64,000 bases of DNA from Escherichia coli. Its GTDB lineage: Bacteria > Pseudomonadota > Gammaproteobacteria > Enterobacterales > Enterobacteriaceae. The position numbers were made by a program, and so were the translations under genes. Positions 7,324-62,720 of the stretch are shown piece after piece. Within the stretch, counting starts at the first letter, position 1. Each line of letters starts with the position of its first letter. Location: assembly GCF_003018255.1 (NCBI RefSeq), contig NZ_CP027440.1, one strand, 5' to 3'. The notes under the pieces were generated by a model that was given only the letters and a program-made list of their open reading frames with translations, ran no database searches and had not been told where the DNA came from.

Positions 7324-7413
7324 TCATTACCCTCTTCAAACAGAAGAGGGTGAATTATCCGTAGGCCGGGCAAGCGTGGCGCTCCCGGCAAAACGTAAAT
7401 AACGAGTACATTA

Positions 7414-14038: not shown

Positions 14039-14087
14039 GCGTATACGACGCTGGTTTCGATTAACTCAATGAAATATGTGAAAATTG

Positions 14088-14125
14088 TTAGCCGGACAAG
14101 GCGCTCGCGCCGCATCCGGCATTGT
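14088..14125. repeat. REP (repetitive extragenic palindromic) element
   Basis: gccggacaaggcgctcgcgccgcatccggc motif downstream of aidB. Confidence 0.75.
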
Positions 14126-22919: not shown

Positions 22920-23228
22920 AGATACCTCCTCGACGGCTGACTTTGTGTGCTCTCCTCTTGTGGTGATCTTCTGATTTAATTTTAATCAATGATAAAGAAG
23001 TGGATGGTGACCATTTCTGATGCAGTTGTTCAAAAAAACACCATGATGAAGTGTGATGAACTTCAAATCAGCGTGTTAGTACGATTTGGTGAAGGATGAG
23101 ATTTATTTGTCGGCTGGCCTTGAGTTTAGCGGGGTATGTCAGTACTATAACGCGTCATTTTTCAGCCGACCTTTAACACGTTCCTTGCCTCCCCGGGATT
23201 CGGCTGACCCAGACAGGAGGCTGAATAA

Positions 23229-23642
<414 letters not shown>

Positions 23643-24224: not shown

Positions 24225-24686
<462 letters not shown>

Positions 24687-24710
24687 TTCGTTATTCAACG
24701 AGACGTAAAA

Positions 24711-24740
24711 ACGCCGACCAGTGGTCGGCGTTTTGCTTTT
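24711..24740 (+). terminator. Rho-independent terminator of the rpsF-priB-rpsR-rplI operon
   Basis: acgccgaccagtggtcggcgt hairpin followed by tttgctttt. Confidence 0.85.
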
Positions 24741-25046
24741 AAGTGATAAAAACCGCAGAAACAGACGTTCCCTCCATAAATCTCTTGCTATTCCTTTTAT
24801 AAAAAGTTCGCAGTACCCATACCTGGCCCCCAGCCTCGCCGCTGGTAGTTCGTGTCATGTTTTTTACGCGTAAAACACGACAAAAGCATCAATACAGCGA
24901 TCGTCTCACTTGTATGATAATAAAAACAATATGTTATATATGAATGTGCTGTTATTTTATTGTTTTTATATATAAAAAGATAAAATACCATCACTTTCGT
25001 AATCTTGAACGCTTTGCAGGTGCGTTCAATCCAATAAATGCTAATA

Positions 25047-25067
25047 TTATGGCTATCATAGCCATAA
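25047..25067. promoter_or_regulatory. Perfect 21-bp palindrome, candidate operator of the HTH/HipA-like module
   Basis: TTATGGCTAT-C-ATAGCCATAA (10-bp arms, 1-bp centre) ending 21 bp upstream of the HTH gene start codon. Confidence 0.45.
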
Positions 25068-25087
25068 AAAGATAAAATATTATCACT

Positions 25088-25579
25088 ATGGGTAAAAAAA
25101 CAGCACCGTTACTCCCTTATACGAATCAGATGCTTAGTGAATTTGGTGAGCGGCTGAAACTTGCTCGTTTACGACGCAGGCTTACCGCAAAGCAAGTTGC
25201 TGAACGTGCTGGGATGTCGCCAATAACATTGCGCTCTCTGGAGTCAGGAAGTGCAGGGGTCACGATAGGGGCATATTTGTCTGTGATGCAGGTTTTGGGC
25301 CTGGAAACGGATTTAAATAAGCTTGCAGCTGAAGACGACTTAGGGCGTCAGCTCCAGGATTCCCGTTTGATTAAAAAAAGAGGGCTTTCTCGTGCATCAA
25401 GTAAGAATGAAGAAGGTTCTCAGACAGCCTCATTGCAGATGAGGCACGAGAAAGAAGGTCATCTCACCACGGATTTAACAGCACTGGCAGAAGGCTCGAC
25501 GCCATCTATTACAGGAGAAACATCAACCTCTCTTGCAGCACTATTAAAACCGATAAAAAAACCGTTAAAAGGAAATTAA
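25088..25579 (+). CDS. XRE-family HTH protein, HipB-like putative antitoxin with long C-terminal extension
   Basis: 163 aa; HTH_XRE signature around [32 protein letters not shown]; Ser/Thr/Glu-rich low-complexity C-terminal ~75 aa; stop 25577-25579 is 2 bp before the kinase ATG. Confidence 0.75.
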
Positions 25580-25581
25580 TT

Positions 25582-26850
25582 ATGGCATTAATCGGAGTGT
25601 ATGCGGATTGGGAAGGCCTGGATGGTCCGGAGCGGATTGGTTATTTACACAGTCGCCGCACTCGGACGCGTGAGATATTTGAGTTTGAGTACGATAAAAA
25701 GGCGCTTGCAGATCCTTCACTTAATTTCATTCAGTTAGATCCTGAAATAATGTTGTATGAGGGAGCACACTACCCAATTCCTCCAAAGGATAAATTTGGT
25801 GCATTTAGTGATTCCTGCCCGGATCGTTGGGGGCGTATGCTAATGAAGCGTCGTTTTGAGAGGGATATTCGAGACGGGTTATGTGATAAAGACTCCCACC
25901 TTTATGAGTCTGATTATCTACTAGGTGTTCATGATCTTTATCGGGTTGGGGCCCTTCGATACAAACGTGAAGACGCTGGAGAGTTTCTTGATAATCGCAT
26001 TGATGTTGCAGCCCCACCATTTACCGAAATAGCGAGTCTGGAAAGGGCTAGCCGGGCAATTGAAGAAGATCCTGATAATAAAGAGCTAATGGGGCAAAAA
26101 TGGTTAAGAATGCTAATCGCTCCGGGGGGATCATTAGGGGGGGCACGTCCGAAAGCCAGTGTTGTTGATGAAGCTGGGCATCTCTACATCGCTAAATTTC
26201 CCAGTGTAAAAGATGAGTATGATGTTGGTGGATGGGAAATGGCCGTTAATGCACTTGCTGTTGGCTGTGGACTGAATGTTGCACCTGCTCAGGCGCATAA
26301 ATTTGCCAGCAATTACCATTGTTTTATGGTTCGTCGTTTTGACCGCACTAATGCGGGAAGGCGTCTGCATTTTGCTTCGGCTATGACACTAACCAGGCAT
26401 CAGGATGGTGAAGATGCCTCTACAGGTGTGAGTTATCTGGAATTAGCAGATGTTCTTATCAGGCATGGCGCGCAGACTAATACTGATCTTAAGGAACTCT
26501 GGTCCAGGATTGTTTTTAATATTCTTGTTTCTAATACCGATGATCATTTACGCAATCATGGATTTATCTTGATACCAGGAAAAGGTTGGCGGCTTTCTGA
26601 GGCATATGATTTGAATCCTGTGGTCAGGTCTGATGGTTTAAAACTCAATATTACGGAAAATGACAATGCACTTGATTTGGAATTAGCTAGAGAAGTTGCA
26701 GAGTATTTTCGACTTAGTTTGACGGAAGCTGATGACATTATTGCTAATTTTAGAGGGATTGTCAGTCAGTGGCGAATCATTGCCGAGCGTCTGAGATTAC
26801 CTGGTCGTGAGCAAGAGTTAATGGCAGAGGCATTCAGAGCGTCAATTTAG
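25582..26850 (+). CDS. HipA-family serine/threonine kinase (putative type II toxin)
   Basis: 422 aa; Gly-rich loop GGSLGGARPKAS, catalytic-loop motif NTDDHLRNHG and HipA_C-like C-terminus (DLNPVV...); aaggaa RBS upstream of ATG. Confidence 0.8.
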   Translation: MALIGVYADWEGLDGPERIGYLHSRRTRTREIFEFEYDKKALADPSLNFIQLDPEIMLYEGAHYPIPPKDKFGAFSDSCPDRWGRMLMKRRFERDIRDGLCDKDSHLYESDYLLGVHDLYRVGALRYKREDAGEFLDNRIDVAAPPFTEIASLERASRAIEEDPDNKELMGQKWLRMLIAPGGSLGGARPKASVVDEAGHLYIAKFPSVKDEYDVGGWEMAVNALAVGCGLNVAPAQAHKFASNYHCFMVRRFDRTNAGRRLHFASAMTLTRHQDGEDASTGVSYLELADVLIRHGAQTNTDLKELWSRIVFNILVSNTDDHLRNHGFILIPGKGWRLSEAYDLNPVVRSDGLKLNITENDNALDLELAREVAEYFRLSLTEADDIIANFRGIVSQWRIIAERLRLPGREQELMAEAFRASI

Positions 26851-26947
26851 AATAGTTATTTCGATATATTCGCTAAATCATAAATTTGCGAAGCAATGCC
26901 AGTAGATACTGAACGTTTTGGAAGAGACGTTTAATTTATGAGAAAAA

Positions 26948-26982
26948 TAGAAACGCTACAAAGCTAAATTATAGCGTTTCTA
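26948..26982. terminator. Bidirectional hairpin between the HipA-like gene and the convergent MFS gene
   Basis: tagaaacgct ... agcgtttcta inverted repeat (10-bp stem, ~15-nt loop) in an AT-rich context. Confidence 0.5.
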
Positions 26983-26992
26983 TGTAAAATAA

Positions 26993-28270
26993 TTAGCTTG
27001 TCGCTAACTGTACTTGTGGTTCTTCGTCTTTAACTTTGATAAGCATCCACAGCGCAATGGCGCCAATAATGTCAAAGAAAGCCAGGGCAATAAAGAACGG
27101 CGCGAAGCCAATAATGTGAACGAATGCCCCGATAAACAGGTTGAAAATCAACTGACCGCTCCATGCACAGGCTCCTGCCATACCCACAGCGGTAGCTACT
27201 TCGTCTTTTTTGAATAGGTCACCGCCCAGAGTTGCTGCAACAGTAGAAAGACATTGATGCGAGAATGCGCCAATGCTAATCAGTAATACGGCGATGTAGG
27301 GATTTTCGACAATACTCACCAGACCAATCGTCATCATAATGACGGCTGCAATAGTGAAGGTAATTCTTCGTGAGTTAATTAAACTCACGCCGCGATCGTG
27401 GAAGAACTTCGCGACAAAACCACTGGCTAAACAGCCGAGATCGCCCAGCAGGAAAGGTAGCCAGACGAACATGGCAATTTCTTTCAGGCTAAAATGCAGC
27501 GTTTCGACGAAGAAAATCGGTACCCAGAAGTTAATGGTTCCCCATGCCGGGTCAGCGAGAAAACGCGCGATGCCAATCCCCCAGAAATTACGTTGGCTGA
27601 GGATATGCTTGATTGACGTTTTTTCTTTCTTATCTGTTTTAAGATGCTGTTCTTGCCCAGACTCAATATAGTGGCGCTCTTCATCAGAAAGGCGTTTAGC
27701 ATCTTTTGGATCTTTATAACAAAAGAACCAAAATAAAGCCGCGAGTAAAGCAAGGCTACCTGAGACAATAAACGCAAATTGCCAGCTATGAAACATAATG
27801 CACCAGGCAATCAACGGTGGAGCAAGCATCGCGCCGAGTGAGGTGCCCATATTGAAAACACCTGTCGCCACGCCACGCTCTTTTGCCGGGAACCATGTTG
27901 ATGCGGTTTTTACACCCGCAGGAATTGCCGATGCTTCGCTGAAACCCATCAGGGCGCGCATAAATGCCAGACCTGACCATGTTCCTGTCAAGGCATGCCC
28001 CATTGTCGCCAGGCCCCAGATTGCGGCACATATCGCAAAACTTAACTTCAGACCCACGGTATCAATAAAGAAGCCCATTATCGGTTGCCCCAATGTATAG
28101 GCCAACTGGAATGCACTGACAATCCATGAATATTGTTCTTTGGTTATTCCGGTTGTCTCCATAATCGTTGGAGCCGCAATACCTAACGCCGTTCTGTCCA
28201 GATAATTGATTACAGTGATAAAGCATACGAGGGCAATCATATGCCATCGATAATTCTTTATTTTATTCAT
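26993..28270 (-). CDS. MFS transporter, anion:cation symporter family (ExuT/hexuronate-transporter-like)
   Basis: 425 aa, 12-TM-like hydrophobicity; MNKIKNYRWHMIALVCF...WFPAKERG...KEIAMFVWLP resembles ExuT/DgoT-type sugar-acid transporters as recalled from memory. Confidence 0.8.
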   Translation of the reverse strand: MNKIKNYRWHMIALVCFITVINYLDRTALGIAAPTIMETTGITKEQYSWIVSAFQLAYTLGQPIMGFFIDTVGLKLSFAICAAIWGLATMGHALTGTWSGLAFMRALMGFSEASAIPAGVKTASTWFPAKERGVATGVFNMGTSLGAMLAPPLIAWCIMFHSWQFAFIVSGSLALLAALFWFFCYKDPKDAKRLSDEERHYIESGQEQHLKTDKKEKTSIKHILSQRNFWGIGIARFLADPAWGTINFWVPIFFVETLHFSLKEIAMFVWLPFLLGDLGCLASGFVAKFFHDRGVSLINSRRITFTIAAVIMMTIGLVSIVENPYIAVLLISIGAFSHQCLSTVAATLGGDLFKKDEVATAVGMAGACAWSGQLIFNLFIGAFVHIIGFAPFFIALAFFDIIGAIALWMLIKVKDEEPQVQLATS

Positions 28271-28362
28271 TTTTAAACCTTTTAATTATATTAATAAACC
28301 CTGGTTGTTGGTATTTCCATGTAATAGGCAATAAAAATCAGGTACAGAGGAAATATTGAAAA

Positions 28363-30435
28363 TTATTGTGTGTAAATGTCTCCCTTTAAAAAATCTGGCC
28401 AGTTTTTTTCAAAGTAAATACCGTTAATACACGGTTGCATACGTAAAGACTTTACTTCGGTAATAAAAGAACCTTGCGAATATTGAATTGTTAATTTGTG
28501 ATTTTTGTCTTCAGCGAGTTCAGAGCGAAAACGCCATTCTTCTTTTGCGCCGCGACGAGTTTGTGGTAGGCATTTGCCTTGTGGATCAATAACCATACGC
28601 GCCCCACGGCTACCACCACCAGCATCAATATAATGCGTTAATTGTGTTAATACCGCGGCAGAAGTCAGCGCCATATGCCGCCACATAAACAGCTCGGCAA
28701 CTTCACCCACATGTTTGATTGCCAATCCATGCCGTTGGACAAATTCGTTCAATAGCAGGGCATCACGAGTGGCACGTCGGACTTTATCGGCATGGCAAAT
28801 AAATCCCGCATAGTCAGACATTCGTGCCTGAATTTTTTCTCTCACAACCGACAACGGCATCCCGGTCCCGTTATCGTGCGCCTGAGTAATGATCTCTCTT
28901 ATAGAAGCCAGTGCCGGAGCTACCAGCTGTGCTATATCTCCATCAATATTACGTTTTTGCGTGCAACCAATAAAACGTGCCAGACGAACAGCAAAAACCT
29001 GCCCGGCATTCAATGCCGCACCACCAGGGCGAGTGACGCCGTGTGTGCCAGCAACTTCCCCCACGGCGAAACAGCCGGGCAGGGAGGTTTGTCCCCAGAT
29101 ATCCACTTCAATGCCGCCATTCATATGCTGATTATTCATGGCAAACTGCAAAGGCTGTGTGGTGAGATCGTAACCGTGCATCTTATACAGCGAGATAGAC
29201 AGCGGATTCATTCGTTGCAGCCGTTCGATGGGCGATGGTGCCAGAGCGTCGTTATTTTCCAGATACGCGCGAACGTCGTCGTCCAGTCGATCTAATGAGA
29301 AGGGCAGGTCACCCGGCACCGCTTCAGGATTGCGATTGAAATCCATAAATACCTGACGCCCTGATTGCTGCTCTTGCGCTACAGCCATATCTAACAAGCT
29401 GGAGCCAAACTCCATTACCCGAGTGGCGTGGAACGGCCACTGATAGCCTTTACGAAAAATGTTTGAAGCCAGCTCCTGGGTGGTGCGATAGTAATCCGCG
29501 AGGAAGTTATACTCGTTGCCCCCGGCATCCACGGAATAGATATGTGGGATCACCTGCACATAGGTGCCGGACAAATTCCACGGAAACGTGCTGCGCGGTG
29601 TGCCTATACCAAACTGGCTTTCAGTCAAATTGGTTAGCGTCAGACCTTCTTCCAGCGCCAGCCCCAGCGAGCCGAAACATTTGTGTGGGTACACACTGTC
29701 GCGATAAAGCTCGCCAGGCCCTCCTGTTGCCAGTACCACATTGGGCGCAATCACAATTGCCAGCCCCCATGGGTTATGGACGCGATGACCGGTCGCGAGG
29801 ATAGCCCCCGCCACGCGGTCTTCGCCGTTTTCGTCACGCTGATGCAGCAGTTTAATCACTGTTGCACTGGTCAACATTGGGATAGCAAGACGCTGTACTT
29901 CTTCCAGCAGCACTTTCACCATTAACCTTGAGGTACGTGGCCCACACGAGGTTGCACGCCCGGCTTCGTCATGGTCGGTTTGATAACGAAGAATCGCACC
30001 ATAGCGATCTTCCGGTAATTCCAGACCAAGATATTGCAACCCGCCAAGAGTGTGCAGAGAACCTACCGCTTCGACATAAGCAGTGTCGTGATCCATCGCC
30101 CCACCACTCGCCAGTGCCTCTGCCAGTTTGGTGAAGTTGTCGCCGTTGCCCGCGGTAGCGGCGGTAAACAGCGTCTGTTTATCGGAACCGGAGCAGGCCG
30201 ATGTTCCCATGTATAACCCGGCGGTGGCGATTAACACATTTTGCTGGCGGCGTTTAAGTTCCACAGCTGCACGCAGCCCGGCTGCACCACTGCCGACTAC
30301 CAGGGCATCTGTTTGCCAAAGTGGGTAATCAACACCGTCTACCGTGACAACCCATGCGGGTTCTGCCTGTGCAAAACCCTTTGGGAAAGTAACGTGCGTC
30401 AGCGCATCAAGGATGGTGTCATCAAGCTGACTCAT
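28363..30435 (-). CDS. FAD-dependent oxidoreductase (succinate dehydrogenase/fumarate reductase flavoprotein-like superfamily)
   Basis: 690 aa; N-terminal Rossmann dinucleotide motif VVGSGAAGLRAAVEL; start ATG overlaps the stop of the upstream CoA-transferase gene (ATGA). Confidence 0.7.
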   Translation of the reverse strand: MSQLDDTILDALTHVTFPKGFAQAEPAWVVTVDGVDYPLWQTDALVVGSGAAGLRAAVELKRRQQNVLIATAGLYMGTSACSGSDKQTLFTAATAGNGDNFTKLAEALASGGAMDHDTAYVEAVGSLHTLGGLQYLGLELPEDRYGAILRYQTDHDEAGRATSCGPRTSRLMVKVLLEEVQRLAIPMLTSATVIKLLHQRDENGEDRVAGAILATGHRVHNPWGLAIVIAPNVVLATGGPGELYRDSVYPHKCFGSLGLALEEGLTLTNLTESQFGIGTPRSTFPWNLSGTYVQVIPHIYSVDAGGNEYNFLADYYRTTQELASNIFRKGYQWPFHATRVMEFGSSLLDMAVAQEQQSGRQVFMDFNRNPEAVPGDLPFSLDRLDDDVRAYLENNDALAPSPIERLQRMNPLSISLYKMHGYDLTTQPLQFAMNNQHMNGGIEVDIWGQTSLPGCFAVGEVAGTHGVTRPGGAALNAGQVFAVRLARFIGCTQKRNIDGDIAQLVAPALASIREIITQAHDNGTGMPLSVVREKIQARMSDYAGFICHADKVRRATRDALLLNEFVQRHGLAIKHVGEVAELFMWRHMALTSAAVLTQLTHYIDAGGGSRGARMVIDPQGKCLPQTRRGAKEEWRFRSELAEDKNHKLTIQYSQGSFITEVKSLRMQPCINGIYFEKNWPDFLKGDIYTQ

Positions 30436-31973
30436 GCATCCTCCATCGGCGTAAACAGGCTACTTTCCATCAGGCGTGGGTGCTTGATAATTGGACGGAA
30501 AGCCATATACGGCAGAATGTCGCGCTCAATCTCCACACCCGGCGCGATTTCAATTAATTCAACGCCTTCTGCCGTTAACTGGAATACTGCGCGTTCAGTG
30601 ATATACAGCACTTCCTGACCACTTTGCTGTGCGTAGGCGGCGCTAAAAGTGATTTTTTCCACTTGGGTAACCAGTTTAGGGATTTGACCTGACTGGGCGA
30701 TATGCAGGCCATCAGGCGTTACATCAATCTTGCTGCCTTTGGCGTCAAACGTACCGCAGAACACCACTTTACGGGCGTTTTGCGCAATTTCGAGGAAGCC
30801 GCCGGGGCCAATGAGATTGCCATTGAGATGGGATACGTTGACGTTACCGTACCGATCCATCTCTCCCATGCCGAGGAAGGTGATATCGATACCGCCGCCA
30901 CTGTAGAATTCGAATTGATCGAGTGATGGAATAATGGCGTCGGCGTTACGGGCGCAGCCGAACAGAGCATCATCCAGCATCATGCCGTTATGTACGCCTT
31001 GCTCGACGCTCATCCATAAACTTTGATAAGGCACGCCTTCGCGCAGCGCAACCCCAGGAATACCGCCCGGAATACCAAAGCCAAAGTTGGTTGAAGCGCC
31101 TGCCACCAGTTCCCGTGCTGCCCGACGGGCAATCAGGCGACGCACCGGATGACTAACCAGTTCAATAGCGTCGTTAGAACTTAGACGGCGATGTTGACCG
31201 CTGATCGTCAGGTCGTAACCGCCAAGATAGGTTTGCGGTTGTTCGCGGTGTTCAACGATACCATCGACCAGAATCCCCGGTAGCTTGACCTTGCGAGGTT
31301 CAATGGCGCCAGCTTCCAGTACATCGCGCACCTGTACAAACACTTTGCCGCCACTGTTGTGTGCTGCCAGCGCCATCGAATAGCTATCCATATCAATCGC
31401 TTCTTCTTCGAGGCTAACGTTGCCACGCGGATCGGCATAGGTGCCGCGCAAAATCGCGTAGTCCACTTTGAAAGGGCGATAGCGGAGTTTGGTTTCACCG
31501 TCGATTTCAATCAGTTCTACCAGGTCGTCGGTCGTGCATTCATTCGACTTACCGCCACCATTGCGTGGATCAACAAACGATCCCAGCCCAACGTGGGTAA
31601 AAAGCCCCGGACGTCCGGCACCGATCTCCCGCAGCAGTGCCTGAATTACGCCACCAGGGAAACAGTAGGCTTCAATAGCATTGCTTTTCACCAGTTCCTG
31701 CATCTTGGGCGACCAGGTAAAATGTCCGGCAATAATGCGTTTGAGCATTTCGGCGTGAGCAAAACGGTTAGTGCCTTTGCTGTCGCGATCGCCAATACCC
31801 AGCGAGTGGATTAATGTCAGATCGCGCGGGTGTCCGGTTTGCAGGAAACGCGCTTCAATGGCGGCCATAATATGGTCAGCTTCCACCATACCGCCGCCGT
31901 TACCGCTAATGGCAATGGTTGCGCCGTCCTGAATTTGCGCCGCCAGTGTCTCGGCGGTTGATAACTTACGCAT
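30432..31973 (-). CDS. Family I CoA-transferase, fused alpha/beta subunits (YdiF-like acyl-CoA:acetate CoA-transferase)
   Basis: 513 aa; GSFVDPRNGGGK and YITERAVFQLTAEGVELIEIAPGVEIERDIL closely parallel YdiF motifs as recalled from memory. Confidence 0.75.
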   Translation of the reverse strand: MRKLSTAETLAAQIQDGATIAISGNGGGMVEADHIMAAIEARFLQTGHPRDLTLIHSLGIGDRDSKGTNRFAHAEMLKRIIAGHFTWSPKMQELVKSNAIEAYCFPGGVIQALLREIGAGRPGLFTHVGLGSFVDPRNGGGKSNECTTDDLVELIEIDGETKLRYRPFKVDYAILRGTYADPRGNVSLEEEAIDMDSYSMALAAHNSGGKVFVQVRDVLEAGAIEPRKVKLPGILVDGIVEHREQPQTYLGGYDLTISGQHRRLSSNDAIELVSHPVRRLIARRAARELVAGASTNFGFGIPGGIPGVALREGVPYQSLWMSVEQGVHNGMMLDDALFGCARNADAIIPSLDQFEFYSGGGIDITFLGMGEMDRYGNVNVSHLNGNLIGPGGFLEIAQNARKVVFCGTFDAKGSKIDVTPDGLHIAQSGQIPKLVTQVEKITFSAAYAQQSGQEVLYITERAVFQLTAEGVELIEIAPGVEIERDILPYMAFRPIIKHPRLMESSLFTPMEDA

Positions 31974-31982
31974 ACAATTTCC

Positions 31983-32759
31983 TTATTGATTGTGGAAGCT
32001 CACGCCGGCTTTTTCGGCAAATGCGTGCGTCGCCTGCTGGCAATCCTGAGTGGCGGACATTAATCCAGCCAGTAACTGGTGGGAGTAATCGGCGTGTTTA
32101 TTTTCCAGCGCCAGAATCAGTTGCTTAATATGTGCCAGTGCCACCGGACCACATTTTTCCAGCTGCGCTAACTGGTTCGCCATCCAGCTTTCCACCTGTT
32201 CTTTTTCTACCACTTCATCAATTAAATTCGCCACCTGGGCTTCCTGCGCCGTCAGGCGTTTACCCAGCATCAGCATCTGGCGACCGACCACCGGGCCAAC
32301 CTGATTAAGCACGCGTTCAATGCCCATCCAGCCAGGCACCATGCCGAGCATCACTTCCGGGTTAGAGAATTTCGCGCCGGGGCGAGCGATACGAATATCG
32401 CAGCACAAGGCAAGTTCAATACCGCCACCGATGGTATGACCGTTGAGATTCGCAACGGTTAATTGGGGTAAGTTGCGCAGGCGATTAAAAACCTCGTTAC
32501 CGCGTTTAATCCATTTTCTGCCCATATCTAATGGCGAATAGGCCGACCACGATTTAATATCGCCGCCCGCACAAAAGAATTTATCGCCGGTTGCCGTTAA
32601 TTCGACTAATCGTAATGTGGTGTCGTTTTCAATTTCATTTAAATAATGGTCGAGAGATTCGATCATTTCTTCATTAATAGCATGACATTTATCTTCACGG
32701 TTCAATGTCAGGCGGCAAGAAGCCGCCGCTCTGCTGAACAGAACGGGTTGGTCACTCAT
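31983..32759 (-). CDS. Enoyl-CoA hydratase/isomerase (crotonase-fold) protein
   Basis: 258 aa; crotonase-like oxyanion-hole region (FFCAGGDIK ... GHTIGGGIELALCCDIRIA). Confidence 0.75.
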   Translation of the reverse strand: MSDQPVLFSRAAASCRLTLNREDKCHAINEEMIESLDHYLNEIENDTTLRLVELTATGDKFFCAGGDIKSWSAYSPLDMGRKWIKRGNEVFNRLRNLPQLTVANLNGHTIGGGIELALCCDIRIARPGAKFSNPEVMLGMVPGWMGIERVLNQVGPVVGRQMLMLGKRLTAQEAQVANLIDEVVEKEQVESWMANQLAQLEKCGPVALAHIKQLILALENKHADYSHQLLAGLMSATQDCQQATHAFAEKAGVSFHNQ

Positions 32760-32768
32760 GATTATTCC

Positions 32769-33611
32769 TTAGCAATAATGTGCGATGCGATCGACGCTAA
32801 TATCCAGCGTGCTGTTAATATCTTTCTGCCACCAGTACGGTGAGAATATTTCCAGTTCAATAGCGCCATTAAATCCGGCGTTTTCAACCAGCCGACGAAT
32901 TGACGGAATATTGATGACACCATCTCCCGGCATTCCACGGTCATTGACCAGATCGGTGGTCGGCACTAACCAGTCGGAAACATGAAACGCGAGGATGCGT
33001 TTTCCGGCACGCAGGATCTGACTGGCGAGATCCGGGTCCCACCAGACATGGTAGACATCTACCGCCACGCCGAGGCCAAATTCGCCATCGGGATCGAGTT
33101 CATCACACCAGTCCAGCGCCTGACGTAACGTGCACAGACAAGAACGATCGGCAGCAGTCATCGGGTGCAGTGGCTCCAGTGCAATTGGCACGCCGACCTC
33201 TTTCGAATGTGGCAGCAACTGGCGAATCCCTTGTTTCACCTGTTCCCGTGCTTCGTACAGATCTTTTGTTCCCATTGGCAGACCGCCAACCACCTGCATG
33301 TAACAGGCGGCATTTAGCACAGCGGCATCGTCCAGCGCCCGGCGGTTATCATCAATCGCCAGCTTGCGCTCCGCCAGCGTCGGTGCGGTGTAGTAGGTGC
33401 TACGGCACAAACCGGAAACGTTTATGTTACTGGCAGCAAGCTGGCGGGCGATTTGCTGGAGATCTTCACCCTGCAACTCCCTGCGCCAGGGGGCAATGGC
33501 GCCAATACCGCGTGCGGCGCAGGCATCAATAATGGCGGGTAGCGGCGTTTTATAGCCCAGTGTCGCGGTATTGATACTGAATAAATCCGGGCGTTGTAAC
33601 AGATCTCTCAT
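32769..33611 (-). CDS. Xylose-isomerase-like TIM-barrel protein (sugar phosphate isomerase/epimerase or dehydratase family)
   Basis: 280 aa; AP-endonuclease-2/xylose-isomerase-like TIM-barrel pattern, same fold family as UlaE/IolE; function inferred from family only. Confidence 0.6.
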   Translation of the reverse strand: MRDLLQRPDLFSINTATLGYKTPLPAIIDACAARGIGAIAPWRRELQGEDLQQIARQLAASNINVSGLCRSTYYTAPTLAERKLAIDDNRRALDDAAVLNAACYMQVVGGLPMGTKDLYEAREQVKQGIRQLLPHSKEVGVPIALEPLHPMTAADRSCLCTLRQALDWCDELDPDGEFGLGVAVDVYHVWWDPDLASQILRAGKRILAFHVSDWLVPTTDLVNDRGMPGDGVINIPSIRRLVENAGFNGAIELEIFSPYWWQKDINSTLDISVDRIAHYC

Positions 33612-33620
33612 GATTCAGCC

Positions 33621-34412
33621 TCAGAAGCGCGGCATACTTAAGCCGCCGTCGATGGCGACCGCCTGACCACAGGTGTAAATCAGTTTACCTTCCGCCATCG
33701 CGCGGACAGTGGAAGCAATATCAGCCGGATAACCCCAACGTCCCCACGGCACCAGACCTTTGGCAATCAGTTCGTCGTAATAGGCCGTTGCCGGAATAGT
33801 CATATCGGTTTTGATGAGACCAGGACGCACTTCATATACGCCAATTTGTTCATTACAAAGGCGAGCAGCAAATAGACGAGCAGCGGCAGAGACGGCAGTT
33901 TTGGCAATGGTATATTCGCCGCGATTCATCGCCAGCATGATGGCGTTGATGGAACTGACGAAAATAATCGAGCGGTGCGGCAGTTCTGCTTCCGGTTTCG
34001 GCTGTGCCAGTAAGCGCTTACTGAATGCCTGAGCGAGGAAGAACGGTGCGCGGGTGTTAATGGCAATATTTTGGTCGAAGCTGTCTGGTTCGAGGTCGAG
34101 AAGATCACCGCGTTTTTTCACTGAAATGCCTGCGTTGTTGAGCAGGCAGTCCAGACGTCCCCACTGGTTTTGCGCTGCGTCGAGCATCTCTTCATGCAGG
34201 GAGAGATCGCCCACATCAGCAGGGAAGCAAATCACTTCCACGCCTTCCGCCAGACATTCTTGTTGTGTGGCATGTAATTTTTCTACGCTATCCGCATCCG
34301 GACGATCATTAATCAGCAGATTAAATCCGCCACGCGCAAGCTCCAGCGCACAGCCCTTTCCAATACCACGAGCGGCTCCGGTAATCACGGCAACAGGAAG
34401 AGTGGATTTCAT
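33621..34412 (-). CDS. Short-chain dehydrogenase/reductase (SDR)
   Basis: 263 aa; cofactor motif TGAARGIGKG and catalytic YxxxK (YTIAKTAV); first gene of the minus-strand operon. Confidence 0.8.
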   Translation of the reverse strand: MKSTLPVAVITGAARGIGKGCALELARGGFNLLINDRPDADSVEKLHATQQECLAEGVEVICFPADVGDLSLHEEMLDAAQNQWGRLDCLLNNAGISVKKRGDLLDLEPDSFDQNIAINTRAPFFLAQAFSKRLLAQPKPEAELPHRSIIFVSSINAIMLAMNRGEYTIAKTAVSAAARLFAARLCNEQIGVYEVRPGLIKTDMTIPATAYYDELIAKGLVPWGRWGYPADIASTVRAMAEGKLIYTCGQAVAIDGGLSMPRF

Positions 34413-34480
34413 ACAATAGCTCTCTTTTTTTGAATTTTGTTTCCTTAGTGATGATTAGCTTGCGACTGGAGGGTAAAAAG

Positions 34481-34502
34481 ATCAACCATCTAGTTGGTTG
34501 AT
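34481..34502. promoter_or_regulatory. Near-perfect 22-bp palindrome in the divergent SDR/TetR intergenic region (candidate TetR operator)
   Basis: ATCAACCATCTAGTTGGTTGAT, 20 of 22 positions self-complementary, 8-bp perfect arms. Confidence 0.4.
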
Positions 34503-34624
34503 ATGCGATGGCGATCACAGGACATTTGATAACCTGATGAAAGTACAAGTTTTTGCCCTTTTTTCTGAAGCTGAAATCAAATCAGGTTATGATAGTCACC
34601 ACGAAGAGGTCGTGGGGAAGCGTT

Positions 34625-35272
34625 ATGTATCTTGATACCAGCAACGTACAGAGCCTGAAAGAAAAGCTGCTGTTATGCGCGGTTAATGAATTTGCCGAAT
34701 ATGGTTACGAAGGGGCCAGAGTCGATAATATCGTCAAGGCCGCGGGGTGCAGTAAACAGACGGTTTATCACCACTTTGGTAATAAAGAAAATTTATTTAT
34801 CGAAGTACTGGAATATACCTGGAACGATATTCGACAAAAAGAAAAGGCCCTTGATTTCTCAGATCTTCCGCCACAGAAAGCCATTGAGAAAATAATCGAT
34901 TTTACATGGGATTATTATATTTCTAATCCCTGGTTTTTAAAAATTGTGCATAGTGAAAATCAAAGTAAGGGTGTGCATTATGCAAAGTCACAGCGTCTTT
35001 TAGAAATTAACCATGCGCACTTGCAGTTAATGGAATCCTTATTGGATGAAGGGAAGAAAAACAATATTTTTAAGCCAGATATCGACCCATTGCAGGTGAA
35101 TATTAATATTGCTGCGCTTGGGGGATATTATTTGATCAACCAGCATACGCTTGGTCTGGTTTATCACATCAGTATGGTTTCACCCCAGGCACTGGAAGCC
35201 AGACGTAAGGTCATCAAAGAGACAATCCTTAGCTGGCTTTTGGTTGACCCTTCATCTACCGCGCGCGAATAA
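34625..35272 (+). CDS. TetR/AcrR-family transcriptional regulator
   Basis: ORF track 34553..35272 begins at a TTG; ATG at 34625 with ggggaag RBS is more plausible (215 aa); TetR_N HTH ([27 protein letters not shown]). Confidence 0.75.
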
Positions 35273-35894
35273 AACTGCCATCCGGCTGGCGGGTAAACAG
35301 GACCTGTTGATTATTCCCCGTATCAATGGTTAAGCCCGTCACCACGCCGCTGGCGTTCTGGCGGATTTTCACCATCTGCCCGTTTTGCAAATTACTCAGT
35401 GGCTTATCCGCGCCTTCTACCTGCGCCATGGCATAGACATCGGTAGCGGGCAGTCCGTGGTCGCGGAACAGCTGCGCCATCGTTTTACCGGGTTCGACAC
35501 GATAGGAGCGCCATTGATTATCAATTCCGCTATCTGGCTGGAATGGTTGCGTATGGGTGGTTTGCGGCTGCTCTTCTGGCTGGCCTTCCTGTATTGGTTC
35601 TGGAGCGACCGGAGCCACCTGATCAGGATCATTTTGTGGCGTGACTAATTGCGCCCGCAGCTGTTCTTCTGTCGGTGGTTGTGATTGCGACTGAATATCT
35701 AACTGCGCTTCACGCGTCACCACCGGCGCGTTGGGCGTATCATCAGATGGAAGCAGAAATCCGACTACCAATACAATGGCGGCAATAATGATCCCCCGAC
35801 GATGCATCGGCGGCAGCGGGTCCATGAAGCGAAAATTGTCCGGCGCGTGCCAGACTTTCTCCAGGGTTGGTTTTAGTTCAAAGCGCCCGGGCAT
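35256..35894 (-). CDS. ytfB: Cell-division-associated OapA/LysM-domain protein YtfB
   Basis: ORF track 35256..35930; start at [21 protein letters not shown], 212 aa; Pro/Gln-rich linker and C-terminal OapA-like domain. Confidence 0.85.
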
Positions 35895-36111
35895 GGTTTC
35901 CTCCTGCTCCGCGTCTTGTTCCTCAATCATAGCCTATGAATAAGCTAACGCTATGATGTCCGTGGTAAACCCGCCTTTATTATATTCATACGGGATATTG
36001 CTATTGTTTCTTTTTCCCCGGGATTTGTCATCATTCCCGCGACAAAGTTTTACCCAAAGAAGTGTGGCTGATATGCTGCCCGCTACTTTATACCCTAAGA
36101 AAGGAAATACG

Positions 36112-38453: not shown

Positions 38454-38497
38454 TCGCATTATCATGCTGGATGGCGCAATGCCATCCAGCTTTTAGA

Positions 38498-41670: not shown

Positions 41671-41671
41671 C

Positions 41672-41775
41672 TGCAGGATGCGCGGCCTACGGTGTATGAC
41701 TTGTAGGGCGGATAAGATGCGTCATCATCGCATCCGCCAATAAATGCCGGATGCGGTTGATGATTTGCAGGCCGA
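41672..41775. repeat. REP/BIME-like repeats
   Basis: ggcctac...gcatccgcc...gccggatgcgg motifs between ytfH and cpdB. Confidence 0.6.
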
Positions 41776-41787
41776 AAAAGAAGTGTA

Positions 41788-43731: not shown

Positions 43732-43920
43732 CAGGGACATCCTTTTATCATCGGGAATACGAAAGAAAAGGGAGAATAAACGTCTTACTTATAGAACAGT
43801 GAAGAATGCCACAATTTTACGCTTTGAAAATGATGACACTATCACAGTTGGCGCATTCATTAACGATAGGGTATAAGTAAAACAATAAGTTAACACCGCT
43901 CACAGAGACGAGGTGGAGAA

Positions 43921-44661
43921 ATGTTAGATCAAGTATGCCAGCTTGCACGGAATGCAGGCGATGCCATTATGCAGGTCTACGACGGGACGAAACCGATGGA
44001 CGTCGTCAGCAAAGCGGACAATTCTCCGGTAACGGCAGCGGATATTGCCGCACACACCGTTATCATGGACGGTTTACGTACGCTGACACCGGATATTCCG
44101 GTGCTTTCTGAAGAAGATCCTCCCGGTTGGGAAGTCCGCCAGCACTGGCAGCGTTACTGGCTGGTAGACCCACTGGATGGTACTAAAGAGTTTATTAAAC
44201 GTAATGGCGAATTCACCGTTAACATTGCGCTCATCGACCACGGCAAACCGATTTTAGGTGTGGTGTATGCGCCGGTAATGAACGTAATGTACAGCGCGGC
44301 AGAAGGCAAAGCGTGGAAAGAAGAGTGCGGCGTGCGCAAGCAGATTCAGGTCCGTGATGCGCGCCCGCCACTGGTCGTTATTAGCCGATCCCATGCAGAT
44401 GCAGAGCTGAAAGAGTATCTGCAACAGCTTGGCGAACATCAGACCACGTCCATCGGCTCTTCGCTGAAATTCTGCCTGGTGGCGGAAGGGCAGGCGCAGC
44501 TGTACCCGCGCTTCGGACCAACGAATATTTGGGACACCGCCGCTGGTCATGCCGTGGCTGTAGCTGCCGGAGCGCACGTTCACGACTGGCAGGGTAAACC
44601 GCTGGATTACACTCCGCGCGAGTCGTTCCTGAATCCGGGGTTCAGAGTATCTATTTATTAA
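43921..44661 (+). CDS. cysQ: 3'(2'),5'-bisphosphate nucleotidase CysQ
   Basis: 246 aa [22 protein letters not shown]; inositol-monophosphatase-family motif [12 protein letters not shown]. Confidence 0.95.
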
Positions 44662-45208
44662 TTAATTTATGCAGCAGGTCCATCACTTGCTGCACCTCTT
44701 CCTGAGTAAGCGCCCCGTCTTTGGCCCATTGCACGCGACCGTCTTTATCCAGCACCACTACAGCGGAACTTTCTTCATCCAGCTGCCAGGCACCGCGCGC
44801 GACGCCATTGCTATCGACAATAAACTGCGACCAGGGATAAAGCTTTTTATTACTCTCCAGACTGCTGCGCACAAACATGCCGGAACCCGGAATTGCGTCG
44901 TCGGTGTTAACAATGGTGGTGGTCTGGTAACGATCGTGCGGTAACTTTGCTGATTTAATCGCTTCAATCAGCGTCGCGTTTTTCTCTTTTGCAGAGGTGC
45001 GACCAGCAATATGTTGCAGTACTCGCACTTTTCCCACTAGCTGCGCGCTGTTCCAGGTTTTGTAGCTAAACTGATCTTTATCAAGCACCAACTCGCCACG
45101 ATCGGTAATGCCAATCGGCGGCACTCGCTGACCGGTTTCGAACTGATGTGCGGAAGCCATCATCGGCAACAGCAGGCAGGTGAGTGCCAGAATCTTGCGT
45201 AGGGTCAT
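44651..45208 (-). CDS. ytfJ: Periplasmic protein YtfJ (DUF1107-like)
   Basis: 185 aa with signal peptide [20 protein letters not shown]; convergent 11-bp overlap with cysQ. Confidence 0.88.
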
Positions 45209-47144: not shown

Positions 47145-47321
47145 ATCTTATCCGACCTTTCAGGCCAGATCCTCGGAAGGGGAAGTTGATTAATTTGTGT
47201 GAAATACACATTGAAAGCCGATTCGAAGAAAGTGAACCGGCATTTTCAGTGGCTAGTATAGCGTAAGGTACTGTAAAGCCGCCAGAGGGTTAAAATTCAG
47301 ACAGCTGAAAAATGAAAAACT

Positions 47322-47420
47322 GCCTGATGCGCTATGCCGAACAGGCCTACGCAGTCCCCGCAATATATTGAATTTGGACGATTTTGTAGGCCTGGCAAGG
47401 CGTTTACGCCGTATCCGGCA
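47322..47420. repeat. REP-like repeat
   Basis: gcctgatgcgctatgcc...gcctacgcag...gccgtatccggca motifs between ytfL and msrA. Confidence 0.55.
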
Positions 47421-53822: not shown

Positions 53823-54164
53823 ATGCGAATATTTGTCTACGGCAGTTTACGCCACAAACAAGGCAACAGTCACTGGATGACCAATGCCCAGTTACTGGGC
53901 GATTTCAGTATCGATAACTACCAGTTGTATAGCCTGGGCCACTATCCAGGCGCAGTTCCGGGGAACGGAACAGTACACGGTGAAGTTTATCGTATTGATA
54001 ACGCCACGCTGGCCGAACTTGATGCCTTGCGCACCAGGGGCGGTGAATACGCGCGCCAGTTGATTCAGACGCCGTACGGGAGTGCATGGATGTACGTTTA
54101 TCAACGACCCGTCGATGGATTAAAGCTAATTGAAAGCGGCGACTGGTTAGACAGGGATAAGTAA
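53823..54164 (+). CDS. ytfP: Gamma-glutamylcyclotransferase-family protein YtfP
   Basis: 113 aa MRIFVYGSLRHKQGNSHWM (GGCT/AIG2-like YGSL motif). Confidence 0.9.
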   Translation: MRIFVYGSLRHKQGNSHWMTNAQLLGDFSIDNYQLYSLGHYPGAVPGNGTVHGEVYRIDNATLAELDALRTRGGEYARQLIQTPYGSAWMYVYQRPVDGLKLIESGDWLDRDK

Positions 54165-54543
54165 TAATAAAAGCACGCCACCTTCGGGTGGCGTTGTTTT
54201 ATGCGATGTATCTCGCGATTTTTTTTGTAACTTTCCCATCTTTTGCTTTTCTCTCCGGGCCGCTTTCCATATCTGCAATCGCATAAAAAACTCTGCTGGC
54301 GTTAACAAATGTACAGGGGTAAAACGGGGACACGCTTTGAACGGTGAGTATGAGTGAGGCCGGCTAACTTCCAGCAAGTGGCTATGAACAGCAAAATGGT
54401 GGTCGAGTTTAGCTTGTTCTTACCGTTCAAGCCTTTCAACTGCTGAAAATAATAATAGTGGAGTAGAGAGTTTATAAATTGCGGGCATAAAAAAACCCTT
54501 ACTAACCGAAGCCCGGTGTTCAGGGTTATTGCGCCAGAAGAAC

Positions 54544-55074
54544 TTATTTATTCTTGGCGCGCTCGAAGGAAGCAACGATTTCAGCTTTAGCGGCTTCTGC
54601 GTTTTCCCAACCTTCAACTTTAACCCACTTGCCTTTTTCGAGGTCTTTGTAGTGCTCGAAGAAGTGAGCGATTTGCGCTTTCAGCAGCTCTGGCAGATCG
54701 TTAACGTCTTTAATGTGATCGTATTCTTTGCTCAGCTTGGTGTGCGGAACAGCAATCAGTTTCGCATCTTCACCGGCTTCGTCGGTCATTTTCAGTACGC
54801 CAACCGGACGGCAGCGGATCACAGAACCCGGCTGCAGCGGGTACGGAGTCGGGACCAGTACGTCAACCGGGTCACCGTCCAGAGACAGAGTGTGGTTGAT
54901 GTAACCGTAGTTGCACGGATAGAACATCGCGGTGGACATGAAGCGGTCAACGAACAGTGCGCCGCTCTCTTTGTCGATTTCGTATTTGATTGGATCTGCG
55001 TTAGCCGGGATCTCAATAACAACGTAGATGTCTTCCGGCAGATCTTTACCCGCAGGGACGTTGAGTAAGCTCAT
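54544..55074 (-). CDS. ppa: Inorganic pyrophosphatase
   Basis: 176 aa [35 protein letters not shown]. Confidence 0.97.
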
Positions 55075-56349: not shown

Positions 56350-56450
56350 TGCCTGATGCCGATTCGTAGGCCGGATAAGGCGCTCGCGCCGCATCCGGCG
56401 GTTGTGCGCTGAAGCCTGATGCGACGCTTACCGCGTCTTATCATGCCTAC
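56350..56450. repeat. REP/BIME repeats
   Basis: gcctgatgcc...taggccggataaggcgctcgcgccgcatccggcg...gcctgatgcgacgcttaccgcgtcttatcatgcctac between ytfQ and ytfR. Confidence 0.8.
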
Positions 56451-62589: not shown

Positions 62590-62720
62590 TCAGCCTGATA
62601 GAGTGTGTGTAGGCCGGATAAGGCGTTCACGCCGCATCCGGCATTTGAGCATAGTGCCTGATGCGACGCTTGATGCGTCTTATCAGGCCTACAGGTGCAC
62701 CGCATCCGGCAAACCATACT
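62590..62720. repeat. REP/BIME repeats
   Basis: gtaggccggataaggcgttcacgccgcatccggc...gcctgatgcgacgcttgatgcgtcttatcaggcctac...caccgcatccggca between mpl and yjgA. Confidence 0.8.

Follow-up and report, generated by a model that had tools for sequence, protein, structure and literature searches.

REP sequences have been recognised as a repeat family for some forty years. They are defined as imperfect palindromes of 30–40 nt (20–40 nt in the introduction of the same paper) of types y, z1 and z2, with a GTAG 5′ to the stem foot, mismatched bases within the stem, and recognition and cleavage by TnpA(REP) as hallmarks (PMC3333891). BIME-1 consists of a z1 and a y unit in single copy around a long, conserved L linker, frequently with an IHF site, and BIME-2 elements are described as tandem arrays (PMC3333891). 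Published work attributes the spread of the units to the REP-associated tyrosine transposase, with retention or co-option afterwards; the gene for this transposase lies outside the DNA analysed here. Escherichia coli K-12 carries REP332 at aidB/yjfN, REP334 at ytfH/cpdB, REP335 at msrA/paeA and REP336 at ytfQ/ytfR (bioRxiv 10.64898/2026.03.23.713779); the K-12 names used here come from the supplement to that preprint and cover REP332–336 only. All six REP sites described below are already catalogued, and observing REPs there is routine.

In the malE-malF and hisJ-hisQ operons, a REP stabiliser reportedly follows the gene for the binding protein (Newbury et al. 1987; Stern et al. 1988). For REP325, the closest relative of the element studied here, stabilisation of the upstream mRNA along with partial Rho-dependent attenuation was established experimentally, and across the genome expression is biased towards the upstream gene in tandem pairs separated by a REP (bioRxiv 10.64898/2026.03.23.713779). 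According to the same source, REP325 fragments of two to four hairpins show no Rho dependence, and terminal REPs are not generally tied to longer mRNA half-lives, their effects being context-dependent. A role as a nucleoid RNA was also proposed for the REP325 unit (PMC4550694).

The DNA analysed here (the window) is a 64,000-nt stretch of the E. coli chromosome (contig NZ_CP027440.1) running from hflK to pmbA and equivalent to 4.40–4.46 Mb of K-12; genes are named after their counterparts in K-12 and in the nearest genome. An initial annotation had listed REP-type palindromes after aidB and rnr and between ytfH and cpdB, ytfL and msrA, ytfQ and ytfR, and mpl and yjgA. Half-site scans and direct reading of the sequence bear this out at all six junctions, and K-12 has REP units at the same six. 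A pattern search of the window, the kind of check which that annotation had proposed, was made with REP half-sites and a covariance model and recovered the six junctions and nine full-length units, and the piece it had flagged does hold REP-type palindromes, namely a y and z2 pair at 56366–56450.

This pair sits within the ytfQRT-yjfF galactofuranose ABC-transporter operon, directly 3′ of the periplasmic binding-protein gene. The first arm, a y-type REP on the plus strand (56366–56399, GTAGGCCGGATAAGGCGCTCGCGCCGCATCCGGC; 54.5 bits, −19.5 kcal/mol, z = −3.0), is followed by an S-type short linker of 14 nt (56400–56413, GGTTGTGCGCTGAA) and by a z2-type REP on the minus strand (56414–56450, GCCTGATGCGACGCTTACCGCGTCTTATCATGCCTAC; 44.4 bits, −14.7 kcal/mol, z = −5.3), whose end is separated from the ytfR start codon by 29 nt. 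Both arms are 100% identical to K-12, and the linker carries substitutions at 3 of its 14 positions. Folded as a whole, the 85-nt pair reaches −43.5 kcal/mol (z = −3.8), and both arms are covered (56369–56447) by a match to the Rfam model naRNA4 (RF02564), which was built from a different REP locus, REP325 (64.8 bits, E = 3.5e-9; gathering threshold 59.5). Just upstream, 56351–56360 on the minus strand (GCCTGATGCC) is probably the 5′-end remnant of a mostly deleted z-type REP and is kept in K-12. The K-12 counterpart of 56366–56450 is REP336, at 4450945–4451029 between ytfQ and ytfR (supplement of bioRxiv 10.64898/2026.03.23.713779), and matches to the 85-bp element number at least 40 per genome in all but one of 5426 E. 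coli genomes (5425). Judged by its sequence, 56366–56450 almost certainly belongs to the ordinary REP/BIME repeats of E. coli, with y and z2 in inverse orientation, and corresponds to K-12 REP336.

Detection relied on Hamming scans of REP half-sites and on a covariance model built from the nine full-length units and run with filters off. When up to 2 mismatches are allowed, the 13-mer GCCGGATGCGGCG is found 14 times in the window against 3.4 expected, a number reached by none of 100 shuffles; this excess, the naRNA4 matches and the copy number per genome rule out chance palindromes. Apart from the nine units, which as palindromes it also matched on the opposite strand, the covariance model returned nothing with E below 0.8. 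All REP units in the window are extragenic, lying between annotated genes. The nine full units are 29–37 nt long and fit the consensus GCCGGATGCG.CGC..GCG.CTTATCCGGCCTAC; GTAG/CTAC stands at the stem foot in eight of them, the exception being the aidB unit with GTTA, and the stem contains an internal loop or bulge in all seven units that were folded singly. The predicted folding energies of the units lie between −14.7 and −22 kcal/mol, and their z-scores between −1.4, for the divergent unit at rnr, and −6.6.

The layouts of these sites match the definitions of PMC3333891 apart from the tandem arrangement of BIME-2. Linkers as short as those of BIME-2 were found at ytfQ-ytfR (14 nt) and mpl-yjgA (13 nt), where tandem copies are absent and each site holds one unit with partial fragments, for which reason we term both single BIME-2-type units. 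By junction type, three REP sites of the window are at tandem, three at convergent and none at the 12 divergent junctions; the genome-wide shares are roughly 40%, 60% and 1%, respectively (bioRxiv 10.64898/2026.03.23.713779). An apparent strand bias, with GTAG on the plus strand in all clear y-type units, was discarded given the small sample and the opposite orientation of the extra y unit that K-12 has at rnr-rlmB.

The other five junctions hold a variety of layouts. Between rnr and rlmB lies a single, divergent 29-nt REP (7361–7389, plus strand, GTAGGCCGGGCAAGCGTGGCGCTCCCGGC; 38 bits, −14.9 kcal/mol), and the convergent aidB/yjfN junction has a single y-type REP with GTAG mutated to GTTA (14087–14120, plus strand; 47.2 bits, −17.9 kcal/mol), corresponding to K-12 REP332. 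The ytfH-cpdB site spans 41673–41780 and comprises three units. Unit 1 (41673–41691, minus strand), part of K-12 REP334, is truncated by an 11-nt internal deletion relative to the full 29-nt K-12 unit and starts 2 nt past the ytfH stop; the middle unit is a full 36-nt REP (41703–41738, plus strand, GTAGGGCGGATAAGATGCGTCATCATCGCATCCGCC; 44.9 bits); and the third (41746–41780, minus strand, GCCGGATGCGGTTGATGATTTGCAGGCCGAAAAAG) is degenerate, ends 7 nt from the cpdB stop codon and has a 5′ half that pairs with the adjacent unit in predicted folds.

At msrA-paeA/ytfL (K-12 REP335, 4441394–4441491), a z1-type REP on the minus strand (47322–47350, GCCTGATGCGCTATGCCGAACAGGCCTAC; 33.5 bits), an L-type linker of 35 nt (47351–47385) and a y-type REP on the plus strand (47386–47419; 43.7 bits) form the left arm, centre and right arm of a single-copy BIME-1 at 47322–47419. 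The linker contains, on the minus strand, the 17-nt core CAAATTCAATATATTGC, identical to the linker core of the rnr-rlmB BIME-1 of K-12. Within this core, ATTCAATATATTG fits 8 of the 9 specified positions of the IHF consensus WATCAANNNNTTR and is a predicted, IHF-like site. The Rfam family ES036/CssrF also matches here (47343–47385, minus strand) with 38.0 bits, its gathering score being 37.6. The mpl-yjgA site (62609–62710) is made of a y-type REP on the plus strand (62609–62642; 52.7 bits), a 13-nt short linker (62643–62655, ATTTGAGCATAGT), a z2-type REP on the minus strand (62656–62692; 48.6 bits, −22 kcal/mol, z = −6.6) and the 3′ half of a further, partial y-type REP on the plus strand (62698–62710, CACCGCATCCGGC). 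Its match to naRNA4 (62612–62689) reaches 86.2 bits (E = 5.7e-14; gathering threshold 59.5).

A borderline hairpin between cycA and ytfE (38466–38490) was absent from the list in the initial annotation. It has a perfect 10-bp stem followed by TTTTAG, scores 4.9 bits and lacks both GTAG and a stem mismatch; from these sequence features, a bidirectional terminator-like hairpin with REP-like arms would in our view be a better fit than a REP. The REP-based table for K-12 assigns an element named REP333 to this junction (supplement of bioRxiv 10.64898/2026.03.23.713779).

The window is set in a highly conserved neighbourhood: a 3-kb piece around the ytfQ-ytfR site is matched at no less than 80% coverage by 5416 of 5426 complete E. 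coli genomes, mostly with 95–100% identity. The REP junctions are among the most variable spots of this otherwise conserved region, and therefore useful strain markers. At rnr-rlmB, K-12 has a full BIME-1 in place of the single divergent REP, and the junction is dimorphic in the population, with the single-REP allele (at least 95% identity) in about 2580 records and the BIME-1 allele (320-bp span) in about 2840. Span lengths of 251, 256 and 262 bp occur among genomes at ytfH-cpdB. In E. albertii, ytfQ-ytfR has two tandem units versus one in E. coli, on a contig that ends inside the array. The REPs had also been cited as typical of E. coli and as support for the species assignment. The window is indeed E. 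coli, with REPs at their usual positions, but the elements are not species-specific, since the same covariance model matches Citrobacter and Enterobacter loci; the species call rests on the more than 5400 E. coli genomes that match at 95–100% identity.

A further claim concerned the accessory cassette at 24.7–35.3 kb, in which no REP was said to occur. The covariance model with filters off found no match there even at E ≤ 10, a permissive Rfam scan of 24600–35400 found no REP, and the inverted repeats within the cassette are AT-rich or terminator-like, so the observation itself stands. Its reading as a sign of foreign or recent status fared differently. Counting as eligible the non-divergent junctions of at least 40 nt, REPs occupy 0 of 3 in the cassette versus 6 of 23 in the core (Fisher p = 1.0); P(0) is 0.40 at the core rate and 0.30 under a per-kb Poisson expectation. 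The absence of REPs thus says nothing about the age of the cassette, the test being powerless at this scale.

The cassette comprises about 10 kb between rplI and ytfB that is missing from K-12, with an HTH/HipA pair, an MFS transporter gene, a five-gene operon (FAD-dependent oxidoreductase, CoA-transferase, enoyl-CoA hydratase, sugar-phosphate isomerase/epimerase family protein and 3-ketoacyl-ACP reductase) and a TetR regulator gene. The metabolic operon (28400–34400) is present in 3114 of 5426 complete genomes (57%) at 80% coverage or more, always chromosomal, in single copy and 90–99% identical, and its G+C content of about 52–54% is E. coli-like. K-12-type genomes match the cassette from window position 34870 on only, a point inside the TetR gene that coincides with the start of the ytfA pseudogene, from which we conclude that K-12 carries a remnant of a cassette deletion; the K-12 ytfA pseudogene is the truncated TetR gene. 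Given this truncation and an operon shared by 57% of genomes, the cassette is old and polymorphic, and the description as recent or foreign is contradicted for most of it. Only the hipBA-like module, present in 1040 genomes, and the adjoining MFS gene look compositionally foreign (43–45% GC). REP presence or absence is therefore unfit for dating or classing a 10-kb accessory block: it has no power at that scale and would mislead here.

Returning to ytfQ-ytfR, the best explanation overall, and one that we consider probable, is an ordinary REP pair that tunes ytfQ and ytfR expression through RNA hairpins. Once transcribed, the pair would fold into stable hairpins that may block 3′-to-5′ exonucleases, so that ytfQ mRNA would end and survive at this point. 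The same hairpins could lower read-through into ytfR-ytfT-yjfF as a partial attenuation, possibly aided by Rho, and the net outcome would be more binding protein than membrane components. REPs at the convergent junctions would likewise act as 3′-end protectors for one or both genes. The analysis itself establishes the sequence of the element, its family, its place in the operon, the stability of its hairpins and a structure conserved across genera at ytfQ-ytfR; its function is inferred.

The search for other signals in the spacer is compatible with dependence on read-through. An intrinsic terminator was looked for on the plus strand between 55100 and 56700, where no G+C-rich hairpin followed by a T-run was found, mixed sequence following both arms; an internal ytfR promoter was sought by a weak consensus scan only, and no sigma-70-like site was found. 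With neither signal in the spacer, ytfR probably depends on read-through. Published RNA-seq gives baseMean values of 300.4 for ytfQ and 205.8 for ytfR (bioRxiv 10.64898/2026.03.23.713779), which by our own length normalisation is a modest excess of about 2.3-fold per nucleotide, under non-inducing conditions. A single unit may attenuate only weakly, since the two- to four-hairpin fragments of REP325 are without Rho dependence. The sole listed rut (Rho-binding) peak adjoining REP336 is antisense to ytfQ (table in bioRxiv 10.64898/2026.03.23.713779). A literature search found no experiment on the ytfQ-ytfR element.

Translation is reportedly repressed when a REP lies within 15 nt of the stop codon (Liang, Rudd and Deutscher 2015), a rule that is also mentioned in PMC12306157. 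It is excluded at ytfQ, where the stem of 56366–56399 begins 29 nt past the stop codon, and could apply in the window only at ytfH (2 nt, with a unit truncated here) and cpdB (7 nt).

Structure was also compared across species. Of 80 ytfQ loci collected outside E. coli, 78 had a locatable ytfR; they come from Enterobacterales, Aeromonas, Vibrio and Alphaproteobacteria and have spacers of 22–557 nt. Folding was compared with mononucleotide shuffles, and the same procedure was applied to paired controls of equal length. The ytfQ-ytfR spacers have a median z of −3.72, with 83% of the 78 loci below −2; the corresponding values are −0.66 and 24% upstream of ytfQ, and −0.11 and 6% inside ytfQ. Paired Wilcoxon tests of the spacer against the upstream and inside controls give 3e-12 and 3e-14, values which overstate independence because the 78 loci are phylogenetically related. 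In E. coli itself, the whole spacer (147 nt) has z = −0.51 against dinucleotide shuffles and −1.9 in the mononucleotide cross-genus scan; there, only the single units and the 85-nt pair stand out structurally and the spacer as a whole is unexceptional.

The hairpins that fill this junction are unrelated in sequence between lineages. The covariance model matches the junction in Citrobacter and Enterobacter, and its match in Pseudocitrobacter lies about 2 kb upstream of the junction. REPs in the E. coli layout are found in Escherichia and Citrobacter youngae, and in the opposite layout in Citrobacter sp. FP75 and Enterobacter asburiae. Palindromes of the form CCCTCTCC...GGAGAGGG occur at the junction in Enterobacter, Pseudocitrobacter and Pluralibacter, hairpins followed by T-runs in Pantoea and Erwinia, and unique stems in Aeromonas, Vibrio and Rhizobiales; two Serratia loci with spacers of 22–23 nt have no hairpin at the junction. 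Such a structured spacer across genera supports selection for a stem-loop between ytfQ and ytfR and agrees with the role that experiments established for REP325. More tentatively, and with a little less than even confidence, we speculate that what is selected after ytfQ is a hairpin slot, which each lineage fills with its own family of mobile palindromes.

These comparisons also bear on whether the elements do anything at all. REPs may be selfish or neutral DNA, leftovers of REP-transposase spread that have no role at the junctions and persist since they are cheap. The REP loci are indeed among the most variable spots of the window, as seen in the rnr-rlmB dimorphism, the ytfH-cpdB deletion and the tandem units of E. 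albertii, and decayed fragments are found at 56351, 41746 and 62698; BIME copy number is also known to vary among strains, with transposase-catalysed BIME cleavage and recombination (PMC3333891). We nevertheless find neutrality unlikely in view of the strong spacer hairpin in 83% of 78 loci from distant taxa with unrelated sequences, which argues for selection on structure, and of the occurrence of all six sites at the same junctions in K-12. Arms that equal those of K-12 next to a linker differing at 3 of 14 positions would point the same way, although gene conversion among copies could give the same pattern.

Still less probable, in our estimate, is a role at the DNA level, with BIME-2 units as gyrase binding or cleavage sites and the msrA-paeA BIME-1 as an IHF site acting on local supercoiling. 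The BIME-1 linker, with a 17-nt core shared with another BIME-1 and 8 of 9 IHF consensus positions, is consistent with such a role. L linkers frequently carry an IHF site (PMC3333891), and BIME-2 elements are enriched in gyrase cleavage sites, with a preference for y-type REPs and no dependence on transcription (PMC6379681). Cleavage is confined to a subset of BIME-2, however, and the loci named, sucC-sucB and tldD-yhdP, hold multiple cleavage sites (PMC6379681), whereas the units here are single; a DNA-level role would also leave unexplained the unrelated hairpins at the same junction in other genera, and it is compatible with, not exclusive of, an RNA role. Finally, the y-z2 units could be transcribed into naRNA4-like, HU-binding RNAs that condense the chromosome, as proposed for REP325 (PMC4550694). 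Both y-z2 units pass the gathering score (64.8 and 86.2 versus 59.5 bits), but this match reflects shared y and z2 sequence and not function, and deletion or over-expression of REP325 leaves nucleoid volume unchanged, with no REP-REP contacts in Hi-C (bioRxiv 10.64898/2026.03.23.713779); we give this account hardly any credence. None of the three excludes the RNA role, and expression tuning by RNA hairpins remains our preferred reading of the ytfQ-ytfR pair.

For annotating the window, the REP sites matter little, being catalogued repeats of a long-known family. The cross-genus set at ytfQ-ytfR is of wider use, as a clean case for asking whether REPs at junctions of binding-protein and ATPase genes act simply as hairpins. 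If the hairpin slot is real, REPs would be interchangeable recruited parts and not the functional unit itself, and a single regulatory hairpin would have been replaced repeatedly by unrelated mobile palindromes.

Compared with the closest known systems, the window is nearest to K-12 REP332, REP334, REP335 and REP336, with the same units at the same junctions and identical arms at ytfQ-ytfR; it differs in the 3 substitutions of the ytfQ-ytfR linker, in the single REP in place of a BIME-1 at rnr-rlmB and in the 11-nt deletion of unit 1 at ytfH-cpdB. The BIME-1 (RIP/RIB) elements with an IHF site have their like in 47322–47419, with z1, a 35-nt L linker and y in single copy around a conserved core, although its arms are somewhat degenerate (33.5 and 43.7 bits) and its IHF site is predicted from sequence. 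REP325/naRNA4 (yjdM-yjdN, RF02564) shares with ytfQ-ytfR the order of y, short linker and z2 and the position between tandem genes of one operon, but it has six units and 12 hairpins and shows Rho dependence only with the full array, whereas the units of the window are single. The malE-malF and hisJ-hisQ operons offer a similar arrangement, a REP pair directly after the binding-protein gene of an ABC transporter with the same proposed excess of binding protein, and the resemblance of ytfQRT-yjfF to them is positional and structural.

Compared with K-12, the accessory block occupies 24740-34870; its left edge lies right behind the rplI terminator (24708-24734) and its right edge falls inside the block's own TetR gene. 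The K-12 ytfA pseudogene starts exactly at the point where the block ends (34870), so K-12 retains a deletion remnant of the block. Its metabolic operon was found in 3114 of 5426 genomes and its hipBA-like module in 1040 of the same 5426. The motif AAAAGATAAAATA..ATCAC occurs as a direct repeat ahead of the HTH/HipA genes (24974-24993 and 25069-25088), and its two copies may be operator sites for the antitoxin.

Almost no differences separate the window's first 37 kb from the nearest genome (NZ_AP045067.1) outside two patches, one in rnr (within 5000-7000, 41 differences) and the other spanning the cassette operon, the TetR gene and ytfB (within 28000-36000, about 190 differences). Such a distribution of differences is typical of homologous recombination. 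The top database identity of the cassette operon is only 97.8%.

The chpS-chpB toxin-antitoxin pair, located between ytfP and ppa in K-12, is mostly missing from the window (54164-54544), where its sole match is a 73-nt stretch with 80% identity (54370-54442). Likewise, ytfI, which separates cysQ from ytfJ in K-12, is missing (44650-44670), and the two flanking genes overlap by 11 nt in the window.

Another difference from K-12 affects the repetitive extragenic palindrome (REP) after ytfH. In K-12 a full REP begins 2-3 nt past the ytfH stop codon, a distance that falls in the range reported for translation repression. In this strain (41671-41691) an 11-nt deletion abolishes the REP hairpin, and we speculate that any such repression of YtfH might thereby be relieved.

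The cycA-ytfE junction contains a hairpin whose 10-bp stem is perfectly paired, with TTTTAG behind it (38466-38490). This hairpin lacks GTAG, reaches just 4.9 bits in the REP covariance model and looks like a bidirectional terminator. The element named REP333 has been placed at this junction in K-12 (bioRxiv 10.64898/2026.03.23.713779). For REP335, the K-12 element corresponding to the BIME-1 at 47322-47419, a peak of Rho-binding (rut) signal has been described 35-46 nt away on the sense strand in K-12 (bioRxiv 10.64898/2026.03.23.713779). Just downstream of this BIME-1, the paeA/ytfL leader carries an Rfam STnc450 match (47206-47263, minus strand); further Rfam matches are ES239 in the cysQ leader (43732-43854, plus strand) and the RpsF leader (23165-23249).

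Outside the window, the ytfQ-ytfR junction was compared among loci from other species, each in its own coordinates. The Escherichia albertii contig (L007) stops partway through a tandem BIME-2 array that occupies this junction (2484-2663), probably an assembly break due to the repeat, and both y units of the array read GTGG in place of GTAG. In Enterobacter, Pseudocitrobacter and related genera (L009, L010 and L034, junction at about 2457-2590; also L011, L014 and L019), the junction harbors G+C-rich CCCTCTCC...GGAGAGGG palindromes, either single or in large inverted pairs (down to -98.7 kcal/mol); these palindromes may be similar to the boxC repeats of E. coli.
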